DNA of 63,265 nucleotides, filler included, from Chrysochromulina tobinii (GCA_001275005.1; 11 parts of 11 records of this genome joined end to end with filler, not necessarily neighbours in it); one strand, 5' to 3'; shown: positions 1 through 59,738, counted from the whole stretch's first letter. Numbers and translations: made by a program. Notes: a model not told the origin generated them from the sequence alone.

Positions 1-220
1 CCACGTGCAAGATACATATATCCTGATGTATCTGATATGTATCCCAAAATGTATCTTGGACTCGTTTGGGATACGTGTAAAATACATGTATTCTCTTGGA
101 AAGTAACAGGGCATTCAAGATACATTCAAGATACATCAGGATACATTAGGGATACATGTATCCTTCAGGATACACGCAGGATACATGTTCACGATACATC
201 AGGATACGTATCCTGATAAC
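1..220. repeat. Array of GATACA/TGTATC motifs in both orientations (possible transposon subterminal repeats)
   Basis: More than ten GATAC/GTATC cores in an AT-richer stretch at the window start. Confidence 0.55.
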
Positions 221-568
221 AAACCCCCCCAAACTCGATAACAACCCCCCCCTAACCCCGCCCGCCCTCGCTAGCGCTCCCGGTCGGACATAAGAGGTTC
301 GTATTCCCAGCGTTCCTCGCACCTTACCGTTTTCTTACCGTACCCCCGACGGCCGCGCGGCCCGCGGGGCCCGAACGCCCGAACGCCCGATCGTGACGCA
401 TGACGTGGGAGTGTGTATGATCGGACCCGGCCCGCGGGGGCCGGGCTCGGAGAACGGAGAGGTCGAGTGTGAGTCGTTTATACTTAGGTCGTGGCGCGTG
501 TGATCCGTATGCGTGTAATGTGATCCGGCCAACTACATTTACTGCGTGAATGGCCAAAACCGGGGAGC

Positions 569-1009
569 TCAGAACAGAACACTCCACACGAACCCATCTG
601 GCGGCGGGCCGAAACGCCCGTCGTCGGCGACGTCTTTCGCCCGAGAAGCGTCGCCTGGCGCCACGGACCTGGCGTCCTCAGCGAGCACGCGCACAAAATA
701 CTCCTTCTTCTTGCGCGCAGCCTTCATCTCTTCGGCCTCCTGGAGGAGGAGGGGCCGCCGCCCCTCCTCCTCCTCCTCCGCCTCGCGCTTCAGTCGTTCC
801 TTATGCTTCCCGTCCTTGGCCTTCTTGTCAGCCTCGAGCCGCTCGTTCTGCGCGTTCTCTTCCACCTGCGCCGCTACCAGCCAGTCGTCAGCTGTCCGCT
901 CAGCCGAGGCGCTTGGTCGTTGGCCATCCCTGGGAGCAGGCGGGGCATACGCAGTTTTAGTAGAGCCTCTTGCAGAACGTCGTGGATACGTTTGAGTTCG
1001 TAGCGCGCG
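569..1009 (-). CDS. Small charged coiled-coil ORF or terminal exon ending GPPPDGFVWSVLF
   Basis: Frame is open from 1009 to the stop at 569; E/K/R-rich helix; no ATG at the 5' end, so the start is uncertain. Confidence 0.35.
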   Translation of the reverse strand, partial: RALRTQTYPRRSARGSTKTAYAPPAPRDGQRPSASAERTADDWLVAAQVEENAQNERLEADKKAKDGKHKERLKREAEEEEEGRRPLLLQEAEEMKAARKKKEYFVRVLAEDARSVAPGDASRAKDVADDGRFGPPPDGFVWSVLF

Positions 1010-1014
1010 TCAGC

Positions 1015-2079
1015 CTACTCGCTGGTCTTCACATCGATGATGGCGTCGGCCGAGCCCGAGCTCGTTGAGATCCGATCTGAAGATGGGAGATCGCCCGAGC
1101 TCGTTGAGGGCGGATACGGTGCACTGCCGATGTCGTCGCTTGTGCGGGACGGAGCCGCACGACGGTACTCCGAATACGAGGAAGACGTCGGCATGCCGCC
1201 AGCTCGCCGGGCCTCGCCGGGCCTACGGACTTTGATGGTCACGTCCCGCGGCGCGCTTTCGGGAGCTGAAGGAGCAGGGGTCGCCTTCGGTTGGATGCCG
1301 CCGCCGCTAAGGGGAGCGCTGCCACCAAACAGGTTGTCGTCCAGGGTCGCTGACCGAGGGGCCCCGCCGAAGAAGTCAGACCCTTGGCCTAACAGACTCT
1401 CGATGCCTCCACCACCATAGGGGTTGGCTCCACCCGCACCCCCAAAGAAATCGGCCAAATTTCCACCCAGCCCGCCCATTCCGGCGCCGGCGGGCCGGCG
1501 ATCGTCGCAGCCCTGTGCCAGGCGCCCGAACATGTCCGCGGCGCCGCTAAAGGAGCTGCCTCGCGTCGAAAAAAACGAGGCGAGGGCTGCAAAAATCCGA
1601 GCCATCGTCCCGAAAAACGAGCTTTGCAGCGCACGTATGGGTCCACCAGCCATGACGATGCCGACGCCCATCCGGAACAGCATGCCCGCCGCGGGCTTGA
1701 GCAGCACGCGCACCACCAGCCCGAAAGCACAGAGCCGCCACGCAAGCTTGAGGGCACCACCCAACAAGTTGAGTGCCAGAACGACTGGGTCAATGCGCGA
1801 TGCAAGCAGCGCGACAAAGAAGGCCAACACCGCAAGGTTGACTCCACCTCGGGCCTTGGAGATCAGCCCCATCTGCACCGGCCGAGCACGAGGCTCCGCA
1901 AAGGCTGAGGGTCCCTGGGCCAACTGCATGGCCGTATGCGGAAGTAGCACGCTGCTAGCAGCAACCGCAGATAGCCCTCGGAAGAATGGTGCGGGGCATT
2001 GCAGCCCAACCGACACCGCGGGGTGCAGCATGCCCAGATGGGCGAGCGACAGCGTGGCTGTGAGCACTGACATCGTCAT
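1015..2079 (-). CDS. Uncharacterised membrane protein, probably plastid-targeted
   Basis: 354-aa ORF with hydrophobic N-terminus, transit-like segment ending RARPVQM, 2-3 hydrophobic helices and a G/S/P-rich tail. Confidence 0.6.
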   Translation of the reverse strand: MTMSVLTATLSLAHLGMLHPAVSVGLQCPAPFFRGLSAVAASSVLLPHTAMQLAQGPSAFAEPRARPVQMGLISKARGGVNLAVLAFFVALLASRIDPVVLALNLLGGALKLAWRLCAFGLVVRVLLKPAAGMLFRMGVGIVMAGGPIRALQSSFFGTMARIFAALASFFSTRGSSFSGAADMFGRLAQGCDDRRPAGAGMGGLGGNLADFFGGAGGANPYGGGGIESLLGQGSDFFGGAPRSATLDDNLFGGSAPLSGGGIQPKATPAPSAPESAPRDVTIKVRRPGEARRAGGMPTSSSYSEYRRAAPSRTSDDIGSAPYPPSTSSGDLPSSDRISTSSGSADAIIDVKTSE

Positions 2080-2259
2080 GCCAAACGAACGTCCACCCGA
2101 CGCTCCGTCGCCGCGCCACTGCGGTGCAGGTGCAGCAGTGTGCAGGTTTGGGTATCGTCAAAATCTAGGACAGGGCGACAACTGAAAACTAAACTGAAAC
2201 AGAGTAGTGCAGAGAAGCCATCATGTGCTGGGAAGCACAGCTCGAATAGGCCCGATCCG

Positions 2260-3549
2260 TCACTTCACCGAGGAGTCGACGGCCGAGGCACGCTTCGCCG
2301 CGGCGATCAGGTCCGCGACGTTGGTGCCGTTGCCCATCTGCAGCTCGTGCGGAAGCCCGTAGTACAGCTGTGCCGAGGGAGCGACGCCGCCGCCATCGGG
2401 CGGCACGAGGCGCAGCTCAGGCTCGAGCGCGACGTCCACACCGGCATCCTCGGCCACCTCGGCGAGCGTGCCCAGCTCGGCCCAGTCGAATAGAAGCGGA
2501 TCGGTCGCCTGGTGGAAGGGAGCCACGTCGATGAGGTGCACGCGGCTGTCGAGGTCGACGTACGCGTCCCACACGAGGCGCCGCGGCAACGCGAGCGCGG
2601 GCCGTCCCTCCGCCGCGCCGACGGTCTCGCCCAGGTGGCGCTCCGCAAACGCGGCGAGCAGCGATAGCAGCCTCGGGCGCTCTGCCTCCAGGAAAGGGTA
2701 GTGTGAGAATCGGTCGCGCTGGCAGACGGCGAGCAGTCGCCGCCCTCCCTCGAGCCCGTAGCAGCGGAACTCGCTCGACGGGCGCAGGTTGCACCACCGT
2801 CGCAGAGCAAGCACCCACTGCGCGCCTGGCAACACTACCCCGTCGGCGCTCACTCCTGGCGTCGTCGGCGCCAGTGGCAGCGGCGCGGGCACCGCTTCTG
2901 CCGCCGCTGTAGCCGGGAGCTCCAGCGATGCGAGCGCAGCGGCGGCGCTTGCAGAGGAGCTCGTCATTGAGTCCACCTCGTGAACCGCCTCGGCCGCCGA
3001 CGGGACCGCCGCCAGCGAGGCTGGCTCGATAGCGTTCGGTGGCGGAGGCGCGGTGGCGGCGCCATCCGTTGGCAGCGACGTGGGGACTGCTGCAGCGTGG
3101 CGCGCATCACACAGGTCGTGTGCGATGTGGTCAGAGCTCTTGAGCAGCAGCAGCACGTCGCGAGGGCTCGTGCACTTGAGACTGCCGCCGAGGACCCACG
3201 CTGCATCCTTTGGGGCGCTCCAGTTGAGCTTCGGCATGACGGCTCCGCCGTGCTTGCGAATGGCCGCCACGATCGCCGACTCGAGTTCAGGAAAGCGTGG
3301 CACCGGCGCGCTGCTATCGCCTTCGTCGTCCGACCAGCGCTCGTCGTCTGACCAGCCATCATCTGGCGCGTCAGAGCCGCTCGGCCGGTCCGTGCAGCCC
3401 TCATCAGCAGGCACGAAGCAGCCGTCGGCGAGCAGATAGCGCACAAAGGCGTCGTCCAGCGGCAGCAGCGTTGTGCGAATGGACACGTGGTGGAGCGCGG
3501 GGTACCAGTTCGAGATGGCGCAGAGAGCGAGGTCTGTCTCGGCAGTCAT
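2260..3549 (-). CDS. CDC123: Cell division cycle protein 123 (D123 family, eIF2 assembly factor)
   Basis: Motifs WYP, YLLADG, PKLNWSAPKDAAW, LLLKSSD, LRRW...EFRC and TDPLLFDW; intronless, 429 aa. Confidence 0.95.
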   Translation of the reverse strand: MTAETDLALCAISNWYPALHHVSIRTTLLPLDDAFVRYLLADGCFVPADEGCTDRPSGSDAPDDGWSDDERWSDDEGDSSAPVPRFPELESAIVAAIRKHGGAVMPKLNWSAPKDAAWVLGGSLKCTSPRDVLLLLKSSDHIAHDLCDARHAAAVPTSLPTDGAATAPPPPNAIEPASLAAVPSAAEAVHEVDSMTSSSASAAAALASLELPATAAAEAVPAPLPLAPTTPGVSADGVVLPGAQWVLALRRWCNLRPSSEFRCYGLEGGRRLLAVCQRDRFSHYPFLEAERPRLLSLLAAFAERHLGETVGAAEGRPALALPRRLVWDAYVDLDSRVHLIDVAPFHQATDPLLFDWAELGTLAEVAEDAGVDVALEPELRLVPPDGGGVAPSAQLYYGLPHELQMGNGTNVADLIAAAKRASAVDSSVK

Positions 3550-4111
3550 ACGACGACACTACAAATGCAGAGTTCCTGTGAATGAAAGTTTCCAGAAAAT
3601 GTGATCCCTGGGCACCCCCACTCGCTCAACCCCCTCGCGGCGTAGGAACCCGATCTGAGATGGATCGATGGCCCTGCTGCGAGGGGCGGGAGGACGTAGG
3701 ACGATAAGCGAGCGGGGCTTAACTCGGTCCGACCGATCCCCTCAGAGGATCAGCGGCCGATCGAGGACTTGACCTCGAAGCCCCGCCCCAACTCCGAACC
3801 TGCCCTTTCTTTTTCTTTTTTGTGCCAACTGGGCACCATCGGCGAGGGACGAGGGATTTGTTGACCTTCGCCGGCACGAGCCACGGCGATGATGAGGTTT
3901 ATTTTTTTCCCTCGAGCCGTCGCGCAAACCTTACTACCCGCCGCGCGGCGCGCGTCCCCTCTCCCACGCCCACTGCGCCTCAACATGTCACTTGCCACGG
4001 AGGGGTATCTGTAACCAGTCTTGACACGCGGGGAGCGCCGGCGGGTGGGCTCAGATTTTTAGGGTTGAAGTTCGTCCTTTTTCCAAGAAAGCCCAACATA
4101 GCGACGTGACC

Positions 4112-7100
4112 ATGGCGGCATTGAGGTCCTCGCATGGGCAAGCCGCGCAATTCGACCGAACGACGCTTGCCTCCCTCGGCATGTCTGCGCTCATTGAACT
4201 CGATGCTGTCGCCGGGTGTGTGGGCGCGCCCGGCTTCTTCTTGTCCTTCGAGCCGCTTGTCGGAAAGGGCCTGGCAGGCACACTTTCGGGCCCTCGCGAT
4301 CTCCTTGTGCCCTCTTCTGTCGCGGAGCTTGATGCAGCTCTTGAGGCTCTTCTCATCACGCTTCGTCCCTACTTATTACACCGGGCTGGCCTTAAGCTAC
4401 TCGACTTCCTTCTGCGCGTGCACTCAGTGCATGTTCACCAACCGCAGCAACTGCTCTTGACGGTGCTGCCATATCACGGAACGTTCATATACGCCAAAAG
4501 TAAGATCATGCCACGCGTTTGAATCTTCATCCCGCTGCCTTCCTCGAGACCACTGCGCATGCATAGATTCACCACGAGTCACAGCGTGCGTGTGCCCTTG
4601 TGCTGCTGTGTGTGTTGCTGCCGTGACCAGTTCTTGTGCTGCTGCGACCATTACTCACGAGCTGCTTGAATCAACTACCTTTGCGGCCCGTTCCACGCCA
4701 TGCGCTAATTGCATCAGCTGGCTCGGCGGCTCCCGGCAGTGTCGCTTCCGTCGCAGGCGGCGATGGCGACACGACCAACTTGCTTGCCCTATGCTGCGCC
4801 GACATCGCCGCAACCGCCAAGGCTTCTTTGAAGAAGACAATTTCCGGGTGCGGCGCCGATTATGTGCGGCGAGCCGCTGCTCGAGCGACATCGCACGTGG
4901 CCCGCACAGTCGACGGCAGTGTGCACGCGTCCTTCGCAACGATGGTGATCGCCGAGGCGCTGCCCAATCTCTTAGTGGCACACCAGAAGCACACGAGACT
5001 GCTACCAATCCTTCAAGTGCGCACTTGAAGCTGTGATTCGCCTTGGCCGCTTTGATCACCCTCAGCTGCCGCATGCCATTCTTCCCCAACCCGCCGTGCC
5101 CTGATCCCCGCCTGCAGCACTTGCGCAGCCCTCATGCATCTCTCCTCACCTCAGCCTCACTCTCCTTCCCTTTGATGCAGCTCGTCCTGGCCCTCCTCGA
5201 GCCTGAGATGCCTCTCGCGTACATCAGCGCTGCCATGGCCCTCCTTACTCAGCTCCTCTCTCACGCACCCCTTTCGGCAGAAGCCTCTGCTGCCCTCACT
5301 AGCCGCCTTGCTGCCCTCACTGCCGCCGCCCCCAGGCCCAGTGCCGTTCTCAAGCCCCTAGCCACCCTCGCCCTCTTGTGGCGTCATGCATTCGTCCATC
5401 TGGTGCCCGCTGCTGCACGCACGCTCCCGACGCTTCTTATCGTTGCCGCTGTCGGGGAGCCGGCAAGCACCGCCACTGCCGCGCTGGCAACCTCTGCCAC
5501 GGTGCTGTCGGCATTGGCGACCGCCGCGGCGCGGCTCGTGACTTCCTTCATCAAGCTGAGTGAGCAGCACGACGCGTCGGTGCTCATGCCGCACGTGCTG
5601 CTGAGCTTGCACACTGCCCTGCCCCTCGCCGATGGCGATGCTGCCAAGATGCTTAGGGCGCCTCGATTGCACAGCCCGGACGGCCTTGCAGCACTCGCCA
5701 ACGCACTCTACACCCTCGCTTGCCACCGGCACGTGCTCATGCACCCGCTTGAAGGCCGGAGGCCACACGAAGGGCGGCGGTTGCAAGACAAAGGCCGTGG
5801 GTGTCGGCGACAGTACCGCCAGCTGGATGGCGTCGCTGCTGTCGTTGGACGTGCAACGAGCGATGCCGGAGGCGTCGTTGCCCTGCATCGCCGCCGCCCC
5901 CGCAGCCACGCGCCTCTTCGCTCTTCAGTCCCTCTTTCTATTCGCAGTTTCGAAGACTACCAAAGCAGAGATTGAACAGTTTGAGAGAACAGAGGCTGCG
6001 AATGAGAGGGCGTCGATTGCGGCTTATCTAGTGGGGGGCAGCCCCACTCTCCGCCGCACTCATGGACTCCCAACAGATAACTCGGCGGCTGCTTCTGCCG
6101 CCCCCCGCAGCCGCCGACGACGATTGCGATGCCTGTGCCGTCGACAGAGCTGTGGCGGCCCTAGCTGCTCAGCTCGCGCGACCGCTTCCGCCCAGCGATT
6201 TGGGTTCGCGTGCGGCATTGGCGGCAGCTCGTCTTCGCGCTCGGGCGCTCGCCGCCGCTGTGGCCCTCCCTGCCGCGACCGCCGCCACCTCTTCCCCCGC
6301 CACCATCGACGCGTCAGGCGTTGCCGCGCCGCCGCCGCCGTGGCGGTTGCTGCTACTTTCGTGGTGGCTTGAAGCGCTTTTTTACCCCCGCCATTGCGAC
6401 ATCACCACGAGCGCAGCCCTTGGCGCCGCCGCTGCCGCATTGCGCCTGCCCTTCCTTCAGGCTGGCCTGCGGCCTATGCGCAGCACTGAGAAAAGCTGCG
6501 AGAGCAAAGTCACGAGCACCTCGCATGGGGCAGCTGTGCTGTCGCTCGCCAAGGCGCTTCGTGCGGGAGTCCACTCGGCGGGCGTGCCGGGGGCGATGGG
6601 CAGCGCGATCGCCGACATCTCCGCCATCACCGCCGCCCCCGCCGCCCCCGCCGCCCTCGTTCTGTGCGCAATCCTCTCGTCGCCAATGTCGCCGCACTCG
6701 CAGATGGCCCCGGCGCTGCTCCTGCTCCAGGGCCATTTGTCCTTCCGGCCGCAACCAGCCTCTGCCGCTGCAGTGGATCCCGAACCAGCGGAGCCAGACG
6801 CGTTGGATCGGCTGGCCACCGCGCTCGCGGCCGCCCTAAGTGCCGCACTCCGCGCTCTCTCCAATGCCCCGCCCCGCTTGCGCGACGCCACCTGCCATAT
6901 AACTCTAACCGCAAGTGCCACTGCGATTGACGCCGGTGCGGTGGCCAAGGCGACAACGGTGCAGGCGGCTTGTGAGGAATCCGAAGAGGTTGATGCCGCA
7001 GAAGGCCGCTGGGCTGAGTATGCGGCTGGGCTGCTCTCTCAAGATGGCAACAGAAGCCGCGGCGCCGATATGGCTGCGGCAGCCTTCTTAGAGAGGGAAG

Positions 7101-10100
7101 CGGCCATGGTGGCGTGGAGGGGTGGACTGAGCACCGTGATTCGCAGCGCCTGTCCGCACTCCGCTGCCACCACCGCACTCGCAGCGCTCGCACTAAGTAC
7201 TCCGGGATCCCTTGCCAACGGTGCCGCTGCCCTAAGTGCCCTGTGCACACGCCACTCGCACGCGGCAGTGCTCGCGGCGCTCACCGAGCAATGGCTTCCG
7301 CCTTCGGTTGCGTGGCCCCTTTCCCCGGCAGCGCGGGGGTACTGCGCGCTCGCGGCGGCGCAAGCAGCAGGCGCAACGGCGGCGGTGACAAACGTGCGGC
7401 GGCGGCGCATTCACGCTTTGCAACTGACCTGTCTCTATTTCGACATCCTCGCCTGCGCCTCAACCCCTCCGCTCAGAGCGACCGCCGCCTCTGCGGCACG
7501 CGTGGCAGTGATTGGGCGCCTGCTGCCGCTATTGATGGCAGTGGCATTTGAGACAGATGCGCTGCTCGCAGGGGCCGCCATTGCCTCGCTCACTACGCTC
7601 ACAGCACTCGCTGGTATCGTGACCTATTTTCCCTCCGTCTTCATCGAAGCGACCAGTGCCGACACTAACTTAGCCCCCTCCTTGTCCTCAGCCGCCGCCG
7701 TTGCCCCTAACGCCAAATCGTCGACTCATCCAGCTGCCCGATCGATGAGTCGCGTTGCTGCCCTCGAAGCGGACGGACTCGGTGCAGCGCTCGTCGTGGG
7801 CCGTAAGGCAGACCTCGCCCTGCAGAAGTGCGCTGTGGGTGCGTCGAGCGGATGGATGAGGAGGGATGATGCACCCACAGCTTCAGCCAAGTGCGAGAGC
7901 GGATTGGCGATGGAGATGGTGACGGCGAAAAGGGCGTTCCTGTGTGGGATGTTGCGCATAGAGCCCACTGGCTTACCCGCATCCGTTACCCTCGCCACCC
8001 TTGCTGCCCTCCCTGTCACCCACGCGTCCGCGCTCGACCCTTCGATGCCGCCTTCGTCACCTCTCGCCCTCTTTCCTGCTCTAATCGCACACCTCGCCGA
8101 GCATGCTGCCGCCGCTCTGGCTGCCCTCAACCCCACCAACCGCGACCCCCACCGCTCCCGTAAGGCTTCGTTGTCATCATCGGCGGCGGCGGCGGCGGCT
8201 GGCTCTTCTTGTGCAGTGCTCCGCGGCGTCCTCTTCCTCCGCCGCCAGAGCCTTGAAACTGCAACCGTGGCAGCCAAGACGGCGCAGGCGGTGATGGTCG
8301 GGGTCGCGTGCGATGCGGCGATGGCGCCGGCAATTGCAGTAGTGCGGGCGTCCATCATGCGATCGGCCTCGTACAAGGCAGATGCTGATCTAAAGCGTGA
8401 GGTTGCCGAGTGCATCGCGTTGATCCTGGAGGCCCTGCTATGGCTCCCTCTCTCAACCGTTCCTGCCGTGCCCGACGCGGCCGCCACTGCCGCGCCGCTC
8501 GTCACGTCACCGCCGTTGCTGGCCGCGTGCCTTTCTGCCCTGTCCCTCTTCGAATCAGCCGAGGCTGCACCAATTGCATGCCTCGCCCTACCGCTCGGTG
8601 CTGCCGCCGCCCTGCGTCCCGCCGTCGTTGCCAAGCTTGCACCCGCCCATCAGCTCGATATTTTTCGCACCTACCTGGCCGCCCTGCGCTGGCGCCCGTA
8701 CATTCTCTTCCCCCGAAGTGCCGCCGCTCACACGGGCGCCACTGCAGTTGCTAAGTACGTTGCTGGTCTGCGCCTCGCCGCAGCTTCGCTGCCGGTGTGC
8801 GCGCGCGATATCGTGCAGAGACTGCTCGACCGTACCAAAGAATTTGATGTGCGAGGTGACGGGGAGCACGAATCCAGGTACAGAGGCGGCGAAAGCGTGG
8901 ACGGCAGCGTATCATCGCCGGCGGCCGTGGTGGGGCTGGCAGAAATGAATGCGAGTGCATGGGTCGATGAGTGCATGCTGACGATTGAGCTCCTTGCCTC
9001 GCGGGCCGCCACAGAGGCCTCTGCTCTGGTGCCGCAGCTTTTGGCGCTACTGGCTTTCGCTGCTAACTACTGGCCCGGTGCTGCCGCTGCGCCTTACGTC
9101 GTGGCTGCCTCTGTCCCAGCAACCACAGCAATCCTCGCCTCTTTGGCGCGCCTGAGCGGCAAATTCGGCGCCCTCGTGTCGCTGACCATGGCGGTCCTGT
9201 GCCAGGCGCTTGCAGATGTGGCAACAGCTGCTGCCGCCGCAGTCGACCAAGGCGCCACCGCTATTGATACGACACCCACCGTCGCTGCCACCGCCACCGC
9301 CACCACTATGTCTACCTCTAGTTCCGTCAGGGCAACGGCGATGGTGGAAGCTCTGAGCGAACGGGCGTCATTGCTAGTGGCGTGCTTGGCGGCGGCCGAC
9401 AGAGAAGGGCGGACACGCCTCGCATCCGACATCTTGTCGCTGGTTCGTCTAATGGGGTTGGTACTTCCTGCCGCCACGCTCACCGCCCTCCTTCCCGCCC
9501 CCAGCGCCAGATTGGCTGAGGCCGCCCCCGCTGCGGAAGCGACAATGACAGCAACGATAGGAATCGCACCTTGCGTGGTGGCGGTCTTGCTGCCGGCACT
9601 GCTGCGAAGACCGTCGGTGCTTCCAGACGCGGTGTTTCAGCGAATCAGTGCTCTTCTCCTCGGCCTGAAAGGTGAGGGCCAAGCGGCTCTGTTGCTGGCA
9701 ACCGTCGATGGCATTTCCGCCGCCCCCGCTGTCTCCCAGTATGCCGTCGCAACTTCGCCTCTTGCATCGCTGCTCAGGCATTTCCTGGTCACCGACAACA
9801 ATGTCGACGGTACGCCTTATGGCACGAACTTTCCTGCCGTCACCTGTGCGCCTCCTGTCACTGCTGTGGCGATGGCATCTTCGCCCTTCAGCACCAACGC
9901 TGCACGCCTTTCGCAAACCGCCACCCGCCCCTCCTTCCACGCCGCTCGGGTGGGGTTGGCGCTCGCCCATGCGACGAAGGTTCTAAAGAATGGAGAATGT
10001 TGCCGAGTCGCCCTCGCTATCCTGACCGCGGCGCCGCCCTCCGCTTGCCTGTACGCGATGGCGGGTCTGCTCGTACCACCATGCACCTCCCCTGCTGCGA

Positions 10101-12854: not shown

Positions 12855-13268
12855 ATCCTGCACGTTTTATCCGGATATATTTGGCGGCTCGCTTAGTGGC
12901 TCCTTTGAGCAGCTCACACGAGTTTGTTTTTTATTTTAGGTTGCGAGTCGTTCTCGGACGTGACGTGACGTCTCGTTAAGGGATTGAATGTTTAGAATGC
13001 CGCGGGAGCTCGCCATGGCGCGAGTGGGTTCACGGAAAAACCGCCCTTCATGCGAGTCGGTTTAAACCGGGTCCGGGACGCGCAGCATAACTGTGAAAGG
13101 CTTTTCTCGCACTTTTCGTCTCGTGGCGACACCTCGACTGGTGCCACCGCTTTTTTGTTTGAGCGTTCNNNNNNNNNNNNNNNNNNNNNNNNNNNNNNNN
13201 NNNNNNNNNNNNTTAATTAATTAANNNNNNNNNNNNNNNNNNNNNNNNNNNNNNNNNNNNNNNNNNNN

Positions 13269-29198: not shown

Positions 29199-30153
29199 TG
29201 AGGCAGCTCCTCGGACCTGGCACGATCTCGAATCCGAGCTGCTCGAGGCACTGGAAATGCCCCTCTGAGATCTGCTGAGTCTGCTGCGATCTGCTGCGAT
29301 CTGCTGCGATCTGCGGCGCACGCCGTGCACTTTGAGTGAGGTCTGACGGCGAGAAAGCCGCGGCTGCCCGCCCTCGTCGCGTGTAGCGTGCAAGGTGCAT
29401 GCCACATGGCGCTTCATACTACGTACACGTCGAAACACGTGCAAGGCCGAACACGCAACAGGCCAACACCAGCACCGGATCCGGAACAGGGCGGACACGC
29501 GGTGTGCCGTGTCGTGTGCTGCGTCGGTATGCGGTGAACGGTCGGTGTACGGCGAGCGAGACCGCTGAGACCGCGAGACGCAGAGACGGCAACCTAGAAC
29601 CGTTGACGCTCATGCGAGCTGCGAGACGCGCCACGCGACGTCGCTCGTCGGGACGCCGAGACCGGCGCCGGCGCGGTGTGATCACGGTGGCTGTGCGGGG
29701 CCGCTGCGCGCACACCGGTCTCGGTCCAACCTCCGGACGGGACGCCACCGCGGACTCGATCTCGGAGCGCGAGGAGCCGGACCGGACGGACGGCGGTCTG
29801 ACTGCTCTGTCCTCCGGACGTCCGGAGCCGAGCGCGCGTGTGGAGGTCGATAGTAGATGCGGCATGCGCGCGATTCATCAGTGTAAGGTACGCCATACGC
29901 AGCGTATTTTGTTTTTGCGTATTTTCAGCATTTTGCGTATTGCGTATTTTTGACCCGCATTNNNNNNNNNNNNNNNNNNNNNNNNNNNNNNNNNNNNNNN
30001 NNNNNTTAATTAATTAANNNNNNNNNNNNNNNNNNNNNNNNNNNNNNNNNNNNNNNNNNNNCATCTGGGCGAAATCCAGGAAATCTCACCTCCTTAGCGG
30101 CGCCCCGCTTGCTGGCCTGTTGCCAGTAGTCATGTAAGCGCGCCCCCCCCGGG

Positions 30154-30275: not shown

Positions 30276-30520
30276 GCGCAAAAAAATGGGTTCGTCGGCC
30301 AAAACTATCGGGTCGCGCGCGCGCTATTTTCACGCGGGCGGTTAATCTCAGAGGCTTCCCTCCCGGTGTTCCAACGGGGGTGGGGAAGAACTTATTATCC
30401 AATAGCTCGTGCTTGACTTTTGGAAATTTATTTCCCAAAGTAAGGGAGTGACTGTGAATTAGACCATTTCCCTCGCTTTGTGACCATCGGAAAAAATCCA
30501 GTGGCACCCGCGCGTCCGTC

Positions 30521-33292
30521 ATGCCGCCGCGGAGCGTGACGAAGTGGTTGGAGATCGCCACGGCGCAGAAGTTGAGGCCGCTTTGGGCGAACGAGTTCAA
30601 GGATGTCCTCGTGCGCGCGAAGGTGAATGACATCGTGGCCGCGCGCGATCGTGATTCTTTTTCCGAACCGTGGCGTCGTGTCTTGCTGAAGAAGGTGAGC
30701 AAGACCACCTGGCTGCTGCTCGACGAGAACGGCAAGGCGCTTGATGAACCCGACTGCCCGTGCAGCGGTTTCACCGAGAAATCACTGCTCGAGGAGGCGG
30801 GCATGGACTACTACGACTTTCCATTCGATGATGTACCTCCTTGCGCGACCTCGCCGAGTGCGACTAACGACGACAAAGATGAGGACGACGCTCTGTGTGC
30901 TGCGGTCGACGCTTTCGTAAGCGCCAACGGCGCCAAAGCCGCCGCCGCCGCCATCACCACCGCCGCCGCCGCCACCAGCACCACCACCGCCGCTGTTGAT
31001 GTTCATGGCACCACCGTCGCCCAACCGGCAAACACCGCCGCCTCCCCTGGTGGTGATCATGCTGATGCTGCTGATGGTGCTGCTGCTGATGGTGTTGCTG
31101 CTGGTGATGCTGATGGTGCTGCTGCTGGTGGTGCTGGTGGTGGTGCTGGTGGTGGTGCTCATGGTACGGCTCCCGACAAGAATGACAATGACAGTGGCAA
31201 CGGCGGTGAAGGTGGCCACGAGAATGATGGTGGCGGCGGTGTCGACGGTGTCGGCGCGGGCGGCGCGGGCGGCGCGGTCGGCGCGGTCGGCGACGGTGGC
31301 GACGGTGTCGACGGTGGCGACGGTGTCGACAGTGGCGACGGTGTCGACAGTGTCGACGGTGGCGACGGCGGCGACGGTGGCGACGGCGGCGACAGTGTCG
31401 ACGGTGTCGACGGCGGCGGCGCGGGCGGCCCGGGCGGCGCGGGCGGCGGGGACGGCGGGGACGGCGGTGGTAATTTGGACACCTTGCGTGTGCGCCGGAA
31501 ATCGACAGGCGACACGGGCACCGTGCGCACTCGGGATGGGTGCAAGGATGCTTCCATACCGGCGCACAAGGCAGTCTTCCTCAAGGATGGTCGTGATGCC
31601 TTCATCTACAGCTTCAAACGGGATGAGTTCAGCAACGAGTTCGAAGTGCTGCTCGAGAACGACGACCCTACAACACCCCGTAGACGACCGATGCAGTTCA
31701 TCGGACAGTACCGAAGCACAGAGGGCAAGGTCCAAGGGGTGCTGATGGGCCAGTTTTCCAACTTCTCTGGTACAGCTCCCCTAAATATCCAGGATCTCGA
31801 GTTCTACTCTGGTACGATGTTCGAGGGCACCATGTTGCAGATCGGCCACAAGGTGATGGTGCATGCAGGAATAGCTGCTCATCGGCCTGCGAACGACTTC
31901 TACCTGGCGTTGATCTTCAAGTGCACGCACCAGAAGCAATGCCGTTACAATGCCCTGATCTATTGCGCCGAGGACAAGACCATGGTGCAGGTAGGCATGG
32001 CAAGCGTGCTGAAGGTTGAGCCGGAGGAGACTGCACCTTCGCACGTGATGGTGGAGATGAAGGACGTGCTTCTTGGCTCAGGTGGTTCAGGCGTGAAACT
32101 TTCTGACCCCAAAGTTGCCCAGCAAAAGAGCTTGCGTGCGACGAAGGCCTTTGTGAAGGCAGCGCAGGATAAGGCAGCGCAGTCAAAGGCAGCGGCGAAA
32201 GCCAAAGCGGCGGCAGACAAAGCGGCGGCAGACAAAGCGGCTGCAGCCAAAGCGCAGGAGGATGCTAGGAAGAGGGCAGAGAAGAAGAAGAAGAAGGAGG
32301 AGGGAGACGAGGAGGAGGAGGAGGCCAAGAAGGGCAAGGCAGGAGACGTCCGTCGCCTCGGCGCTACAGGCCGGACCGGTGCTGGTGGTGACGGGGGTGG
32401 CGGTGGTGGCTATGACGGCGTTGACGGCGACGGCCATGGTGGCTTCGGAACCCGTGGCCGAGCTGGAGATGGAACAGGCGGCGGCGGTCGTGGAACTGGT
32501 GGCGGCGGCGGTCGTGGAACTGGTGGCGGCGGCGGTCGTGGAACAGGCGGCAGCGGTGGTCGTGGAACTGGTGGCAGCGGTCGTCGTGGCGGTGCCTGCG
32601 GAACACACGATGAAGCTGGCACCTGCGACGGAGCTGGAGATGCTGCAACTGGCAGCGGCGGTCGTGGCGGTGGTGGTGGATGCGTAACCCGCGGGGGAGC
32701 TGAAGACGGAGGTGGTGGCAGACCTGGCGGCAGAGCTGGAAACAAAGATGGCAATCCCCTGGTGGAGCTCGCAGAGATGCGCCACGTCATTGAGATGCAA
32801 AGTAAGCAGATGCAGGAGATGCAGAGGCTCATCATGGCCAATGCAACGGCTGGTGGCAGTGGAAGTGGCAACCGCGGTGGTGGCTGGGGAGAATACGGCG
32901 TTGCGCAGCATGCCAACTTTGGGCCTAGCGGTGGCGGTGGCCGTGGCAACCGCGGTGATGATGGCTGGGGAGAATACGGCGTTGCGCAGCTTGCCAACTT
33001 AGGGCCTCGCAGTGGTGGTGGCGGTGTCAACCGCGGTGGTGGCTGGGGAGAATATGGCGTTGCGCAGCATGCCAACTTTGGGCCTAGCGTCAATTATGGC
33101 AACGGAAGCTCTACTGAACTGTTTGGCTCATCGTCGCGGGTTTGGCCTGGCAGAGGCTCGAAGCGAGATCATGAGACGTCGTACGAATATGCAAAGCTTG
33201 TCGCAGAGGCTTCAGAAGACGAAAGGAGTCGACGTGTGCGGATTGAAACGTTGCGGGCGCTTCAGGGGGGGTCGCAGCTCCCGTGGCTATGA
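30521..33292 (+). CDS. Intronless 923-aa protein of unknown function with Gly/Asp-rich linkers and a central globular region
   Basis: Long ATG-initiated ORF; complex segments at about aa 1-105 and 320-530; C-terminal triple repeat WGEYGVAQxANxGP. Confidence 0.7.
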   Translation: MPPRSVTKWLEIATAQKLRPLWANEFKDVLVRAKVNDIVAARDRDSFSEPWRRVLLKKVSKTTWLLLDENGKALDEPDCPCSGFTEKSLLEEAGMDYYDFPFDDVPPCATSPSATNDDKDEDDALCAAVDAFVSANGAKAAAAAITTAAAATSTTTAAVDVHGTTVAQPANTAASPGGDHADAADGAAADGVAAGDADGAAAGGAGGGAGGGAHGTAPDKNDNDSGNGGEGGHENDGGGGVDGVGAGGAGGAVGAVGDGGDGVDGGDGVDSGDGVDSVDGGDGGDGGDGGDSVDGVDGGGAGGPGGAGGGDGGDGGGNLDTLRVRRKSTGDTGTVRTRDGCKDASIPAHKAVFLKDGRDAFIYSFKRDEFSNEFEVLLENDDPTTPRRRPMQFIGQYRSTEGKVQGVLMGQFSNFSGTAPLNIQDLEFYSGTMFEGTMLQIGHKVMVHAGIAAHRPANDFYLALIFKCTHQKQCRYNALIYCAEDKTMVQVGMASVLKVEPEETAPSHVMVEMKDVLLGSGGSGVKLSDPKVAQQKSLRATKAFVKAAQDKAAQSKAAAKAKAAADKAAADKAAAAKAQEDARKRAEKKKKKEEGDEEEEEAKKGKAGDVRRLGATGRTGAGGDGGGGGGYDGVDGDGHGGFGTRGRAGDGTGGGGRGTGGGGGRGTGGGGGRGTGGSGGRGTGGSGRRGGACGTHDEAGTCDGAGDAATGSGGRGGGGGCVTRGGAEDGGGGRPGGRAGNKDGNPLVELAEMRHVIEMQSKQMQEMQRLIMANATAGGSGSGNRGGGWGEYGVAQHANFGPSGGGGRGNRGDDGWGEYGVAQLANLGPRSGGGGVNRGGGWGEYGVAQHANFGPSVNYGNGSSTELFGSSSRVWPGRGSKRDHETSYEYAKLVAEASEDERSRRVRIETLRALQGGSQLPWL

Positions 33293-33835
33293 ATCTCCAG
33301 TATGTCACACTAGTTCTCGATGCCGTCTCTCAGCAACTTGATACAAGGCTCTCCTCCTTAACTGGGGTTGGACCTGCGTCTGTCTGGAGCCGCGGCCTCT
33401 CGTGGACGAAGGGTGCGATCAATACTGTTGATGATTGACCTTGGGTTCAGCAGCCCCCTTGTCGCATCCTCATCGGTTCTATCCGCACCCCTACGATGAT
33501 GATAGGATTTTCACTCGGAGGGGTCAAAACATTTTTTCTGCGGGCCAAGTGGTACGACTAGGACATCGTCGCCGGAGCCAGGAGAGAGCGCGGGGGGCTG
33601 TATGGGCATCAAGGGGGGGGGATCATGATCAGAGCCAGAGCGCGGTGCTTATGGGCCACGCAACATGGGAATCATCGCGAAAGACATCTGTGTGGGCATG
33701 GTGCAACGAGGGCATCGTGATCGGAGCCAGAGCGCNNNNNNNNNNNNNNNNNNNNNNNNNNNNNNNNNNNNNNNNNNNNTTAATTAATTAANNNNNNNNN
33801 NNNNNNNNNNNNNNNNNNNNNNNNNNNNNNNNNNN

Positions 33836-36800
33836 CCGGGACAATGGAGTCGTCGGCGTACCATTCTTGGATGACTGCTCGGACAAGTTCGTCTCGACCT
33901 GGCAGCGGCGTGCCGGCCAGACAGCGTTCGAGCGCCCGCATCACGAGGCCAGCGCAGGGTAAGGACAAGAGGGGAGCTTCGACGCCGCCGATTGGTTCGC
34001 CTCTAAGCATCTTCGCGAGCCTCGTAGGTCCGCGTGCAGTCTTGAAGCACCGCGCATGGCGGCGCGAGTTTGAAGCAGTGCTCATGCGGCATGAGTCGGA
34101 CGAGCACCGGCGCGAAGTTGTCGAGAAGTACTGGACGGAGGCTTACCCGATCATCTACGACGAGGACGACGACGTCTGCATGGACGAGCGCGTGCACGAC
34201 TTGCTTATCAGGCGTCTCACGCCGGGGCGTCTCACGGAGCTGTCCAAAAAGATGAAGGAGAAGTTGGCAACGGGACTCGATGAGTTCACGGGCATGCTCG
34301 TCGACAAGGGCGGCGAGCAGCTGGCGGAGCTCTTCGCCAAGACTCTCATCGAGGAGCTCAAAGGCCTTTGCTTCGCTGAGTCTTGGATCACGGTGCACGC
34401 CACGCTCATTCCGAAACCTGGAAAGGACCGCTGCAAGCTGTCGGGCTGGCGAGAAATCTGGGTGCAGTCGCACCTATGGAAGATGGTCGTGGGCGCCATC
34501 CTACCGGAGTTGAGCGAGCTGATCAACAAGACCAGGCCATGGTGCAACGCGGGCTTCACGGAGCACCGCGGGTGCCCAGAGATGTCCCTCGCGCTCCGAT
34601 GCAGGATCGAGCTCGCGATGCTCTCACGCAAGGAGCTGCATCTATACTTCCAGGACTATTCTGTCTTCTTTCCCAGCCTGTCAAGACAGCTGGTCTCTTT
34701 CATACTCCACGAGATCGGTGTACCAACGGAAGCCATGCAGATCCTTCGCGAGTTCCAGGACACGGTCATGGGCTCGCGCGCCTTGCCGTGAAGACCGGAG
34801 CGTGCGCCCTCATCAATCTGCCCGTCGTCTGCGCCGCATGGCTTTTCCTCCGTGTTGGCGGCGGTTGAAGTTGGCGGCGCATCGGCCGCGCCCTTTGTGT
34901 CTGAGGCCTCCTCCGTGCCTTCTGCTGAGGTTCCCACTACTGCGCCCTTGGCACTGCCAACCGTGGCAGCTGGCCGTAGGCTCTGGGAGTCGGCCTCGAC
35001 ATCTGAAGGAGCCGCGCGTCGGGCGTGCTTGCCCTTGAGCATCCGCTCCTCGAGCACGGCCGCGATCTTCAGGTTGCAGATTCCAGCGATGTGGTCCAGA
35101 TGGCATTTCGCAGGTGCGCAGCAGCATTGAAGAAGCACGCGCTCGTCGCAATTCGTTACCATCTCAACAATGGCGTCGATCTCACCTGCGATGTCACCGG
35201 GCAACAGCCGGCCTGGCCCAGCGACCACATAGGCGAGTGGCAGTCTGTTCCGCTCGGCAACCTCGTAGGCATCTCTTTCGCCCTCGTACCACTCCGCATA
35301 GCAGCGGATGACCGTGTCGCGCAGGGACTCGTCCCTGCCATATCTGCGCCCATGCGGAAAGGGTTGCAGAGAAGGCTGCCTTCGCCGCGCGTGCAGCGCA
35401 GGTGCACCCGGCCCTTGTGCCTCGTTTCAGGCCAGAGATAGTTTCCGACCTCCACGTACGCGCCTGGCGGCGGCTCGTTGAGGGCGAGTAGCCTGACTCG
35501 CCTTCGCTCGCTACGTAGCTGCAGTCGCTCGCTGGCCGCGCGCTCAACAATGGAGAAGAGCGCGCCGCTCGCCTGAGCGCTGCGCCCTCCCAGCTCGCAT
35601 CCTCTGGGTTCTTTGAGAAGGTCGCGCACTTTGCCGGCGGCCTCCAGGTCAACGTTGCTCGCTCGGTTGGCCTCTTCAACGAGATTTGCGACAGCCTCGT
35701 CGCACGCCAGCCCCGTGAGGAGCCTGTCGCCTTCGCCTGAGCGCAGCGCGACCAAGGTGTTGCCCGGCCCCTTGTCCTTGCGTGAGAGAGCGCCCGGCCG
35801 CTCTCTCCTAATGATCGCCTCCGCCTGGCGTCCGAAGCCTATTTCTTGCTCCGACGCCTTTTCCAGTTGAGCGATGGCGTAGTCGAGCCTCGTAGTCGCT
35901 CGAATCTCATTGTACGCTGCCTCGGTGCGCTCAATAAGGACGGCCGCAATGGCCAGCTCCTTGGCCTTGATCAGATCTGGCGGTATATCTGTGGAGCCCG
36001 CCCCGTACAGATCTCGAACCTCTCGAATATCCACGTCACCCAGAATCTCCCAGCGCGTAGGCGGCCCCTTGCCGCCCTCGAAGTTGATGCTCGTGGCCCT
36101 GAGCTCGCTGGCAGACTGTAGGACCTGCTGCAGCGCCGTGATGCGTCGTCGCAGTCGCTCTCCGTCTGACTGTTTGCGCGCGTTTGTCGCCGCCGGTGCG
36201 CCAATCTCCTCGCGGGCGACGCGCTTGCAGGTTTCCATGAGAATTTCCGTTCTCGTTCCGTGCTTTAGCCTGAAGTCCATGCTTGCAGAGCGCAGTGCGG
36301 CTGCCGACTCCTCCTCGGTCAGGCCTCTCTTCTGTTTCCGGAGCTCGTCGAGCGCGCCCGTCTGCGCGAGTTCCCTTTTCATGTCGTAATCCCTAAGGCT
36401 CTCGATGGCCTCGGCCGTCACCCGATCTTGATATGCCGCCCAGCCTACCGGCTCCGCGTCCATCTCGTCGTTGAGCGGCCTCCTCTCGAAGAGCTCGTCG
36501 TCGCTCACCATCACGTCCGCGTCGTCCACAAGACTGCCCGCGCCAGTGTAGTCGCGCTCTGGGAGAGCATCCGCCCGCTCGGACGCCCTCTTTGCCAGTG
36601 CCTTTGCGCGCACCCTCGGTGCCATGGGCTGCTGCGGCATTCGACCCAGCTTGGGCTTCATGGATGAGCACGTCTGTACAAGCTCTGGAGCCACTGTGAC
36701 AATCTCGATCTCGACGGACAGGTGATACTGCTTCGAGCCGTGCACAAAGTGCGTGCCCGCGGCCAGGGCCTTGTCCATGCCTGGCCCTTGGAGAACGTGA

Positions 36801-38683
36801 TCGATGACGTGGTACGAGTACTGGTCCGAGCCCTCGCCGTCCGCCACCTTCTCCACGCACTGGAAGGTGGTCTTCTCCGAGCCTAACCTTGTCCAAATCG
36901 AGCCGTCCTCGGAGTAATTGCCGCTCATGAGCTTGTGCAAGTACGCCTCGCCTGGCCTCTTGCCCGCCTTTTTGTTGATGTCGATGCCGTAGGTCTTCTT
37001 CAGCCTGGCGGCTGTCTCAGCATTCAGGTCCCCGATGATGAGGCTCGCGCTCATCGCCGCCGATGCCGCCTCGATCAGAGCAGTCCAGACCAACTTGTGG
37101 AACTCGGCACTTCTGCTTGAGACGGGCATGTAGCACACAAAGAGATCGAAGCTGAAGTCGTCGTGCAGCATGCGAAGACGAACTCGAAGAACGCGGCCTC
37201 GAAGAACGTGATCCTCCTCCAGCTTCTCCATGATGTTCGGGTCCCAGGCAAAGAGCACGCCCCCGTGATCGTCCTTGGCCGGCGCCGAGAAAACGACGCT
37301 CGGATCGTACTCCGGCAGGACGCCCTTCCACTTGGCCGCCGGGCGTTGCGATCGCCAGTTGAGACGCATCCCGAGATAGTCCGCGATCGCCCGGCCTCCG
37401 TCGTGCTGCGCGTGCACCTCGGAGATGCCGATGGCCGCGATCTTGTGCGACTGGATGTACTCAATGAGCGCCTCGAATTTGTCGTCGCCGTGGTACTTGA
37501 GCGCAGAGCCGTCGCCCTCGTCGCCCGCGGCGTCGTCTCTTTCTAGTTGATCTGCGAGAGCCCCGGCGAGTCGCTGTTGCAACGGTCCCGCCATCCGAGC
37601 CGAGCGCGCCTGGACGGACCGACCAGGGCGCGCATCGATGAGCGTGAGCCCATTCGCGTTCCAGCCCATGATGCGGTGCTTTCTCTCGCGCTCGATCGAG
37701 ATCGTCGGTCGTGTGAGCAATGGCCTTCCTTCGAGCTGTGTGCGCTCCTTGAGCTTGTCAAGCTCATGTCGTGCTCGCCGCACGCCCCACGTGGTCAGAT
37801 TAGCTAGACCAGGCGGCGCAGCTGCCTTGTTGCGGCCGAGCGCGTGAACTCGCTTGGGCCCGCCGGTATCTGCTCGTTCGTCGTCAGCAGCTGCTTGATC
37901 GCCATCAGACGGCCCAGCCCGTACTTGGGATCGCTCGACGCCCACCTTGTCGCGCGCACGTGCTGTCGCGTGCTGGTGCGAGGCGAGCGCGTCGGCCACG
38001 CTGAGTAGAAGGCAGTGCACGTCCATAATAGACCACATTCCTCCCTTGGAGCAGTCAGTCAACTCGACAGGCAGACCTGACGCCTCTCCTCTTAGTAGCG
38101 TCGCTTCGTCGATGCGTAGTGCTCCGCCAAGGGTGATTGGCGGCATCAGTTGCGAGAGCGGATCACGGTCACACAGTCGTCCCAGCGACCGGAAGAGCAG
38201 TTCCGCTGGAAGCGCGCGTATCCAGATCGTGCCTCCGCCCGCCGGATTCTTGAGCCGCTCGATGCTGCCCTTGTCACCCAGACGGGCGAGCAGCCATGTG
38301 ACCAGCCAGGCCGCGCGAGCCAGCTCCGAGGCGACGCTGGACTCCTGCGTGCTCTCTTCGATCGCAGCGATGGCCGCATTGTCCATGGCTCCCTCGCGTT
38401 TAGCCCAGTGATGAGCGAGAGCTTGGTCGCTGCCCAATCCCAGATCGCCTTCCACTGCGGCTCCCACGCTCAAACCCGCGGCGCGAGCCGCATAGGAGCC
38501 AAGGACTCTCAGTGTTGTCTGAGCGCAGTCTTCGAGCAGCGCCTGCGCCGCGGTAGCCGCCGCTACGCTCGCGCCATCAGGTGCGCCGGTGCCTGCTGTG
38601 CCTGCGGTTGCCGTTCCGTGCGCTGCGGCGCGCGCAGCATCGTCGCGCGTGCCTGCCGGTTGCAGGTAAATGTCCGTGGGCAA
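33836..38683 (-). mobile_element. Non-LTR retrotransposon (APE endonuclease, DUF4326-like domain, RT); partial, with one frameshift and an internal inversion
   Basis: EN motifs IMGWNANGL, ISEVH, CYMP, IIGDLNA and IDHVL (about 37670-36710, minus). RT motifs LIPKPGKD, NAGF..RG and LYFQDY (plus, 34051-34778). GEPIG..EAPLL and WYADD (minus; YADD at 33849-33860). Confidence 0.9.
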
Positions 38684-38783
38684 NNNNNNNNNNNNNNNNN
38701 NNNNNNNNNNNNNNNNNNNNNNNNNNNTTAATTAATTAANNNNNNNNNNNNNNNNNNNNNNNNNNNNNNNNNNNNNNNNNNNN

Positions 38784-42145: not shown

Positions 42146-42245
42146 NNNNNNNNNNNNNNNNNNNNNNNNNNNNNNNNNNNNNNNNNNNNTTAATTAATTA
42201 ANNNNNNNNNNNNNNNNNNNNNNNNNNNNNNNNNNNNNNNNNNNN

Positions 42246-43810: not shown

Positions 43811-44010
43811 NNNNNNNNNNNNNNNNNNNNNNNNNNNNNNNNNNNNNNNNNNNNTTAATTAATTAANNNNNNNNNNNNNNNNNNNNNNNNNNNNNNNNNN
43901 NNNNNNNNNNACTTGTGTTGACCGAGGGGAGCGGAGCCGTCCGGCGAGACGGTGGTGGAGTGAGCGTGGGGGGACCGCGACGAAACTGAACTGAACTGGA
44001 GCGGAGCGGC

Positions 44011-46770: not shown

Positions 46771-46964
46771 TGCAAGCACGGGGCGGAGCGTGGGGGGAGC
46801 ATGGGGGGGAGCGTGGGGTGAGCGTGGGGGGCTGGAGCGGTGGGGGGGGTGAGCGTGGGGTGAGNNNNNNNNNNNNNNNNNNNNNNNNNNNNNNNNNNNN
46901 NNNNNNNNTTAATTAATTAANNNNNNNNNNNNNNNNNNNNNNNNNNNNNNNNNNNNNNNNNNNN

Positions 46965-48846: not shown

Positions 48847-49413
48847 TGCTGGAGGGAGTGGAAAAAAGAGGGTGGACTTGCATTCGAGGTGTACTAAGGA
48901 AGACTTGTCCTCTTCGTCGAAAGTTACAGGAACGCACACGTCACTCAGTCGGTTTCGTTCTACCATGGTAGGTCCAGACCAAAAATGGGGCCCCCCGATG
49001 GCCCGAAGCGCTCCGGCCGCTTCAAAAGAGGGCGGCCGAGGCGCTGGGCCCCATCAAGCCGGCGGCGGCCACGGAAGGCGACGACGAGCACGCGGCCAAG
49101 CTGCCCGAGGCGCTCAAGACATTCAAGACACTGGCCAAGACCGAAGCCATCGAGGCAGCGTGCGGCCGGCTGCACGAGCTCGAGCTGAACGTGGCGCGCG
49201 CCCCAGACTCCGAGGAGGCCGTCGGCGCGCTGGGTGCGCAGCTCGTCGTGGTGGATCAGGTGATGGCCACCGAGATTAAAAAGCGCACCGAGGGCGTGAG
49301 CGAGGAGGCGGCGNNNNNNNNNNNNNNNNNNNNNNNNNNNNNNNNNNNNNNNNNNNNTTAATTAATTAANNNNNNNNNNNNNNNNNNNNNNNNNNNNNNN
49401 NNNNNNNNNNNNN

Positions 49414-57829: not shown

Positions 57830-58387
57830 NNNNNNNNNNNNNNNNNNNNNNNNNNNNNNNNNNNNNNNNNNNNTTAATTAATTAANNNNNNNNNNNNNNN
57901 NNNNNNNNNNNNNNNNNNNNNNNNNNNNNCCTCGCGGGGGCGGAAGCTGTGGCCGCGGTGTCCAATGCCGCTATGTACCTCGATCAATGTCGAGTCATAG
58001 CGGCAATAGGGCTCCGCATTGTGTGCTTGTGTGCAGCGGCCGGCCTTTGTTGGGCTGGCAGGCGCCGCCCGCGCTCGGTATGAAACCCATTATCTTCTCG
58101 TACATGATGGCTTAGCCCGGCCGAGCTGCCCGGCCCTTAGCGATGGCGCGATCGTTGGCAAACCTATCACTGTAGTACCTTTGAGTGTTTTCTCCACGCC
58201 ATAGGTATATACCTCCGTGCGTACCGGTTACTACGGTCTACGCCGTCAACACGGCGCGCGCCGACGCGGCTCGCGCGTGGGGACGGTGTGTCGGTGTCGC
58301 GAGCTCAGTTAACATGTCAGTTAAGGAAACCGCAAACCGGCTTTAAAAACCGCAGCCTCCACCTGGAGCATGGTCTCTCATGAGCTA

Positions 58388-59617: not shown

Positions 59618-59738
59618 AAATTTCTGGTTCGTACCAGGNNNNNNNNNNNNNNNNNNNNNNNNNNNNNNNNNNNNNNNNNNNNTTAATTAATTAANNNNNN
59701 NNNNNNNNNNNNNNNNNNNNNNNNNNNNNNNNNNNNNN

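Follow-up and report, generated by a model that had tools for sequence, protein, structure and literature searches.

The window, that is the whole stretch of DNA which was analysed (63,265 nucleotides), is a chain of separate unplaced contigs with ten identical linkers of 100 nt between them. Each linker has the form N44-TTAATTAATTAA-N44 and provides stops in all six frames. The first five are located at 13169–13268, 29962–30061, 33736–33835, 38684–38783 and 42146–42245, and the remaining five at 43811–43910, 46865–46964, 49314–49413, 57830–57929 and 59639–59738. As the contigs are joined by linkers, neighbours across a linker are not truly adjacent. The contig of interest extends from 33836 to 38683 (4848 nt, about 62% G+C) and holds on its minus strand a truncated, degenerate copy of a LINE-like element with a giant open reading frame, which is cut by both contig ends. 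Except for an inversion, this contig is collinear with an intact paralogue, L002. No further copy of the element was detected elsewhere in the window by blastn and tblastn, and a search of the window against Rfam gave no match. Elsewhere the window contains a BP28CT domain, known from a nucleolar protein, which together with the retroelement indicates eukaryotic DNA, and the adjoining contig carries at 30458–33292 an open frame of 944 codons which is rich in G/D/A repeats and has no Pfam match.

Followed in the direction of the element, the contig begins with an upstream open frame of 1175 codons (35159–38683, minus strand) with a weak match to an APE-type endonuclease at about 37019–37480. 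A surplus of 2 nt relative to the paralogues (35340–35343, minus strand) shifts the frame between this upstream reading frame and the one which encodes DUF4326 and the reverse transcriptase (RT). The region upstream of the RT, composed of a linker and a DUF4326-like domain, occupies 34774–35343 on the minus strand and ends with GLHGKAR and two nucleotides of a D codon. The next segment, from 34050 to 34773, is open over 241 codons on the plus strand and comprises the end of the linker and the N-terminal half of the RT. The RT then continues on the minus strand at 33836–34049, reading CFKTARGPT..GEPIGG..WYADD, a part which in three collinear relatives abuts the plus-strand segment exactly. A sequence-only reading of the locus had located YADD on the minus strand at 33849–33860 and the motifs LIPKPGKD, NAGF and LYFQDY on the plus strand. 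Translation agrees on both counts, the minus strand giving WYADDSIVP and the plus-strand motifs sharing one stop-free frame which runs from RAWRREF to QDTVMGS over 34051–34778. The minus-strand translation of 34779–35426 closes with GLHGKA. The flip separates RT motifs 0–3/A from motifs B–C, and for this reason the copy cannot make reverse transcriptase.

The exact extent of the rearrangement was obtained by comparison with related elements. A scan of metagenome contigs yielded two useful loci, L001 and L002, and with the plus-strand piece as query three relatives of greater length, P0001, P0002 and P0003, came to light. L002 is an un-inverted paralogue with a single open frame of 2902 codons at positions 2–8710. 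In the alignment to it, window positions 34774–38682 correspond to 3999–96 in minus orientation, 34049–34774 (726 nt) to 3999–4724 in plus orientation, and 33836–34049 to 4937–4724 again in minus orientation. Letter-by-letter comparison sets the breakpoints at 34049|34050 and 34773|34774 and hence the inverted segment at 34050–34773, a length of 724 nt, with no nucleotide lost and none gained at the junctions and an ambiguity of 1 nt in the placement of the cuts. With A, B and C denoting the part upstream of the inverted segment, the inverted segment itself and the RT continuation, L002 reads GGCAAGGCGCGCGA|CCGTGCATGG at the ancestral A|B site (GLHGKARD|RAWRREF) and GTCATGGGC|TGCTTCAAG at the B|C site (VMG|CFK). 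In the window, the ancestral start of B is joined to the start of C at the left junction (34049–34050, with the 1-nt ambiguity), and the ancestral end of B is joined to the end of A at the right junction (34773–34774). The close paralogue P0003 reads GLHGKARDRAWRREF through the A|B site. P0001 (60% identical) and P0002 (46%) pass from QD.VMG/KG directly into.FKTA.GPT..YADD/FADD. All three are collinear over both sites, consistent with the breakpoints deduced from L002, and in many more distant relatives phmmer matched the region as a single stretch through the B|C boundary. The inversion in the RT of this one LINE-like copy is real. The sequence-only reading had described a clean inversion without loss or gain of bases which splits the RT, and in this respect the alignment to L002 confirms it; its length of 728 bp, from 34051 to 34778, has to be corrected to 724 nt, the two edges having been off by 1 and 5 nt.

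Another part of that reading, according to which the inversion is bounded by CGCG palindromes and was mediated by microhomology, does not hold. Both motifs are present, at 34051–34054 and 34775–34778, but they stem from the single ancestral A|B site, a CG-rich site which was split by the first break. The ancestral B|C site lacks CGCG, and L002 has CGTG at the place of the left motif. In this contig CGCG occurs once per 71 nt, and 12% of all positions lie within 5 nt of one. The bases shared at the junctions amount to 1 nt. Flipping 34051–34778 had been said to restore the frame at both junctions (GLHGKA|RAWRREF and VMGS|RCFKTARGPT), and translation reproduces this; the operation nevertheless puts 6 nt on the wrong side, so that RD is dropped at one junction and SR added at the other, and the frame survives solely because both strands of CGCG read alike. 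A restriction-like cut and flip at two CGCG sites was considered and rejected, as the predicted combination of GLHGKA|RAWRREF with VMGS|RCFK is shown by no relative.

Judged from its sequence, the element belongs to a divergent, probably APE-type LINE-like family with one giant frame and with DUF4326 between a putative endonuclease (EN) and the RT. In L002, DUF4326 is situated between the EN-like and the RT regions, and an RNase H-like motif is found near the end. The RVT_1 profile of Pfam, which had been proposed as a check on the flipped sequence, matched neither the pieces of the window (E ≤ 1) nor the intact paralogue P0004 or P0001 (E ≤ 0.1). DUF4326 was detected with E = 0.049 in the window and with 3.7e-5 in the intact paralogue, where it is the sole Pfam domain found, and Exo_endo_phos gave a weak match in the window (E = 0.024; 14.9 bits, below the cut-off of 24.5). 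Identification of the RT therefore depends not on Pfam RVT_1 but on PDB, on the ESM Atlas, on the relatives collected by phmmer and on the order of the motifs. When the RT region of the paralogue was compared to PDB by phmmer, the best 8 of 17 matches (E = 0.0015–0.27) were to LINE-1 ORF2p, R2 or related RTs. In the ESM Atlas, RVT_1 was assigned to 27 of 30 named look-alike clusters with a score of 0.96. A phmmer search of the protein library yielded 605 relatives at E ≤ 0.001; among the 25 relatives scanned, RVT_1 was present at E ≤ 1e-5 in 14 (12 exceed the gathering score), Exo_endo_phos or Exo_endo_phos_2 in eight, and several carry RNase_H. The RT motifs follow each other in canonical order, from IPKxGK to YADD. 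In sequence searches of PDB, the EN region had no hit and the C-terminal region no informative one, and an AlphaFold model of the RT region of the paralogue, based on an alignment of five rows, had a mean pLDDT of 34.4 and was unusable. A literature search found no paper which couples DUF4326 with a retrotransposon.

Eleven DNA runs labelled mixed culture contain about 0.9 of the sampled words of the contig, and five of these (X1, X2, X4, X8 and X11) were compared by way of contigs assembled for each run from its own reads, a procedure in which rare variants are dropped. The right junction is spanned by a contig of 732 nt (34287–35018) with 0 differences in all five runs, at a depth of 36–79. 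Over the left junction a contig of 169 nt (34005–34173), likewise with 0 differences, was obtained from X1 at a depth of 45.4, which means that this junction is bridged in at least one DNA run among the pieces listed. X2, X4 and X8 show reference-type depth of 35–43 at 34079–34143, and X11 has a hole over 34051–34136, which proves nothing. The depth of the junction contigs matches that of neighbouring copy-specific contigs (40–54 in X1), and shared parts of the family reach 120–150. L001 belongs to a second public assembly and agrees letter for letter with the window from 33836 to 35533, both junctions included. The junction contigs without differences, together with L001, establish that the inverted order is present in the DNA of the culture. 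Junction reads had been named beforehand as the means to expose an assembly artefact; with the inverted junctions bridged by run contigs, such an artefact is not supported. All these runs and assemblies may come from one culture, perhaps including the source of the window, and would then be repeat observations rather than independent populations. Two contigs from RNA libraries also match with 0 differences, one from X13 (33836–34066, depth 4.5), which passes the left junction by 16 nt, and one from X12 (34941–35100, depth 2.5). As these contigs are scant and carry-over of DNA is possible, they are too little for a claim of transcription.

The same run contigs were inspected for the opposite orientation. 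At 90% likeness, 4/4 runs contain a contig (depth 73–84) in which a position near 34050 is linked to one near 34774 on the opposite strand and in which about 6% of the letters to either side of the joint differ from the window. In each of the four runs a short contig departs from the window at 34049, its next 19 letters being identical to L002. Both un-inverted junctions hence belong to diverged paralogues only. At 97% likeness or above, no joint was seen in 4/4 runs, by contigs which can miss rare forms, and nothing in the run contigs suggests a minor flipped form of the copy itself. An inverted-repeat search gave no pair of repeats linking the two breakpoints, and Pfam gave no match to a recombinase in the contig.

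In point changes the copy appears young, and its structure is damaged. None of its 2507 codons that align to L002 is a stop, and its dN/dS against L002 is 0.09–0.22 across all blocks, with 0.11 for the inverted segment. The 2-nt surplus at 35340–35343 breaks the frame; it corresponds to a gap in L002, both P0003 and L002 read CNPFRMGADGRDESLRD unbroken there, and a paralogue contig without the 2 nt at 35340/35341 occurs in 4/4 runs. Downstream of the RT there is a deletion of 551 nt, not a multiple of 3 (L001:2178–2179 against L002:6542–7092), and compared with L002 the locus L001 further shows a 23-nt indel at 696–718 and a 3-nt indel. Owing to the 2-nt frameshift and the 551-nt deletion, flipping the segment back would not restore a working gene. 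A paralogue contig found in 4/4 runs at a depth of 36–40 skips 135 nt (45 codons, in frame) at 35210–35346.

Divergence from L002 is not uniform along the contig. It is about 12% (10–20%) over 34049–35400, which covers the inverted segment plus roughly 600 nt next to it on the A side, about 2–3% on the C side and 1–5% outside 34049–35400 altogether. The step falls exactly on the B|C breakpoint, where dS drops from 0.50 to 0.09. Gene conversion that ended where homology ceases could account for it, as could an older mosaic.

At the 5′ end the two assemblies disagree. In L001 (8095–8368) the body of the element ends at paralogue position 631 and is followed by the first 177 nt or so of the element in inverted orientation, a piece which contains the likely start codon region. 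This may be a 5′ inversion by twin priming or a neighbouring copy arranged head to head. Loose ends of run contigs at 38147 and 38601 match this 5′ structure. From 35534 on, 46 clustered differences separate the window from L001, and at 38147 the two diverge altogether, the window staying collinear; probably a different paralogue is followed in one of the assemblies. Because of this disagreement, the link between the inverted copy and the 5′ structure of L001 is uncertain.

Concerning the origin of the rearrangement, the base-perfect inversion of 724 bp in this one, already degenerate copy likely arose, although by no means assuredly, from two double-strand breaks and end joining. The two breaks would have cut out the middle fragment of the RT, and end joining would have put it back in reverse, at the insertion of the copy or at some time after it. 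The absence of any lost nucleotide, the single shared nucleotide and the lack of repeats fit two-break end joining, and the junctions are conservative, share few nucleotides and are free of repeats in the manner of a two-break simple inversion. Several observations speak against a simple cut and flip. Spontaneous breaks seldom leave all four ends unprocessed. The copy looks young and yet bears a number of structural lesions, a state also compatible with damage at birth during reverse transcription; L001 has a possible inverted 5′ end, a hallmark of twin priming; the step in divergence at the B|C breakpoint is not predicted by such an event; and the bridged left junction was seen in one DNA run at least, among the pieces listed, and not in all.

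Such damage at birth is the basis of an alternative which we regard as rather unlikely yet as the main rival, namely that the inversion was made when the copy was born, in target-primed reverse transcription with template switches of the RT, in a modified form of twin priming. A cDNA fragment primed internally would have been copied in reverse, the RT then jumping back to the RNA. This would accommodate a copy which is free of stops over 2507 codons and at the same time has 724 nt inverted and 551 nt deleted, and the inversion of at least the first 177 nt or so beside position 631 in L001, matched by the loose ends at 38147 and 38601, points the same way, as far as that structure belongs to the inverted copy. 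Junctions of twin priming usually carry small deletions or duplications, and two successive jumps would have had to land to the base with no nucleotide lost. The flip described here lies about 3.4 kb from the possible 5′ inversion and has the element in sense orientation on both sides. For human L1, the part of a recent study drawn on here reports 20 instances of internal inversions by 'twin priming and switching', and there these coincide with the 5′-inversion breakpoint (10.1101/2024.08.27.596794), which argues against the same origin for an inversion so far away from it.

A more particular version, which we consider doubtful, also places the flip in retrotransposition and supposes that the ends of the cDNA were set by the RNase H of the element, that the RT copied this cDNA backwards by jumping end to end between templates and that synthesis resumed at the next base of the RNA. 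If true, this would add a new way in which LINE-type elements acquire internal inversions exact to the base, and it would explain how a nonsense-free copy came to combine an inversion with a 551-nt deletion and, perhaps, with an inverted 5′ end.

A template switch during chromosomal replication, by fork stalling or break-induced replication, is improbable. Such switches typically leave a microhomology of at least 2 nt plus duplicated or deleted sequence, whereas the present junctions are free of gains and losses and have a single nucleotide in common. In favour of a stalled fork, the first break falls within a near-palindromic, CG-rich run (GGCGCGCGACCGCGC) which could conceivably bring replication to a halt. 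Still less credence is due to an artefact of assembly or library with the inverted order absent from the genome: the copy does stand on a short unplaced contig of a repeat family within a concatenated pseudo-molecule, and the upstream part of this contig resembles a mosaic of paralogues, but the junction contigs without differences have copy-specific depth, the right one in 5/5 DNA runs and the left one in one, and the second assembly, L001, shows identical junctions. The last proposal, put forward in the sequence-only reading, of a programmed invertible segment which switches the RT on and off can practically be dismissed, since against an exactly conservative segment whose frame is still open when flipped there stand shared ends limited to a 4-nt motif found once per 71 nt and no terminal inverted repeats, the lack of a recombinase match in the contig, a single orientation of the copy at 97% likeness or above in contigs that can miss rare forms, other disabling lesions in the copy, and paralogues which are fixed un-inverted.

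The inversion is thus a fixed, ordinary, one-off rearrangement of a dead copy and has no regulatory role. Its importance beyond annotation is small: what caught the eye as an inversion bounded by palindromes is a fixed rearrangement in one dead copy, and the case illustrates how palindromic motifs close to a break can lead one to misplace the actual junction. Of more use, perhaps, are two by-products. One is what appears to be a divergent LINE-like family with a giant reading frame (EN, DUF4326 and RT in at least 2902 codons) which is missed by Pfam RVT_1, and the other is the copy itself as a clean example for work on the origin of conservative inversions in young retrotransposon copies.

Among known systems, the APE-type non-LTR elements with an EN-RT-RNase H arrangement (L1/I-like) come close to the element as a whole. 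The first matches of the RT (LINE-1 ORF2p, R2) and the order of its motifs are the same, and relatives carry Exo_endo_phos and RVT_1, some also RNase_H. In contrast to L1/I-like elements, a single frame of at least 2902 codons is used here, DUF4326 is inserted between EN and RT, and the RT is beyond the reach of Pfam RVT_1. With invertase switches the locus has in common a defined segment in opposite orientation, but its ends lack inverted repeats, the contig has no recombinase match, and one orientation alone is seen. The 5′ and internal inversions of L1 by twin priming offer the same picture of an inverted stretch that inactivates a LINE-type element, as described in the part of the L1 study used here (10.1101/2024.08.27.596794). 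The present flip differs from them in lying off the 5′ end and away from a 5′-inversion breakpoint, with sense element on both sides, and in that nothing was lost or duplicated. The inverted segment is not the 5′ end of the insertion, and instead of a deletion, a duplication or microhomology the junctions have neither lost nor gained a nucleotide and share 1 nt. A close counterpart is provided by the two-break micro-inversions of neutral DNA, which are likewise conservative flips of less than a kilobase with 0–1 nt shared, in repeat-free, non-functional sequence; with two base-perfect junctions, the inversion described here is probably cleaner than most spontaneous micro-inversions.
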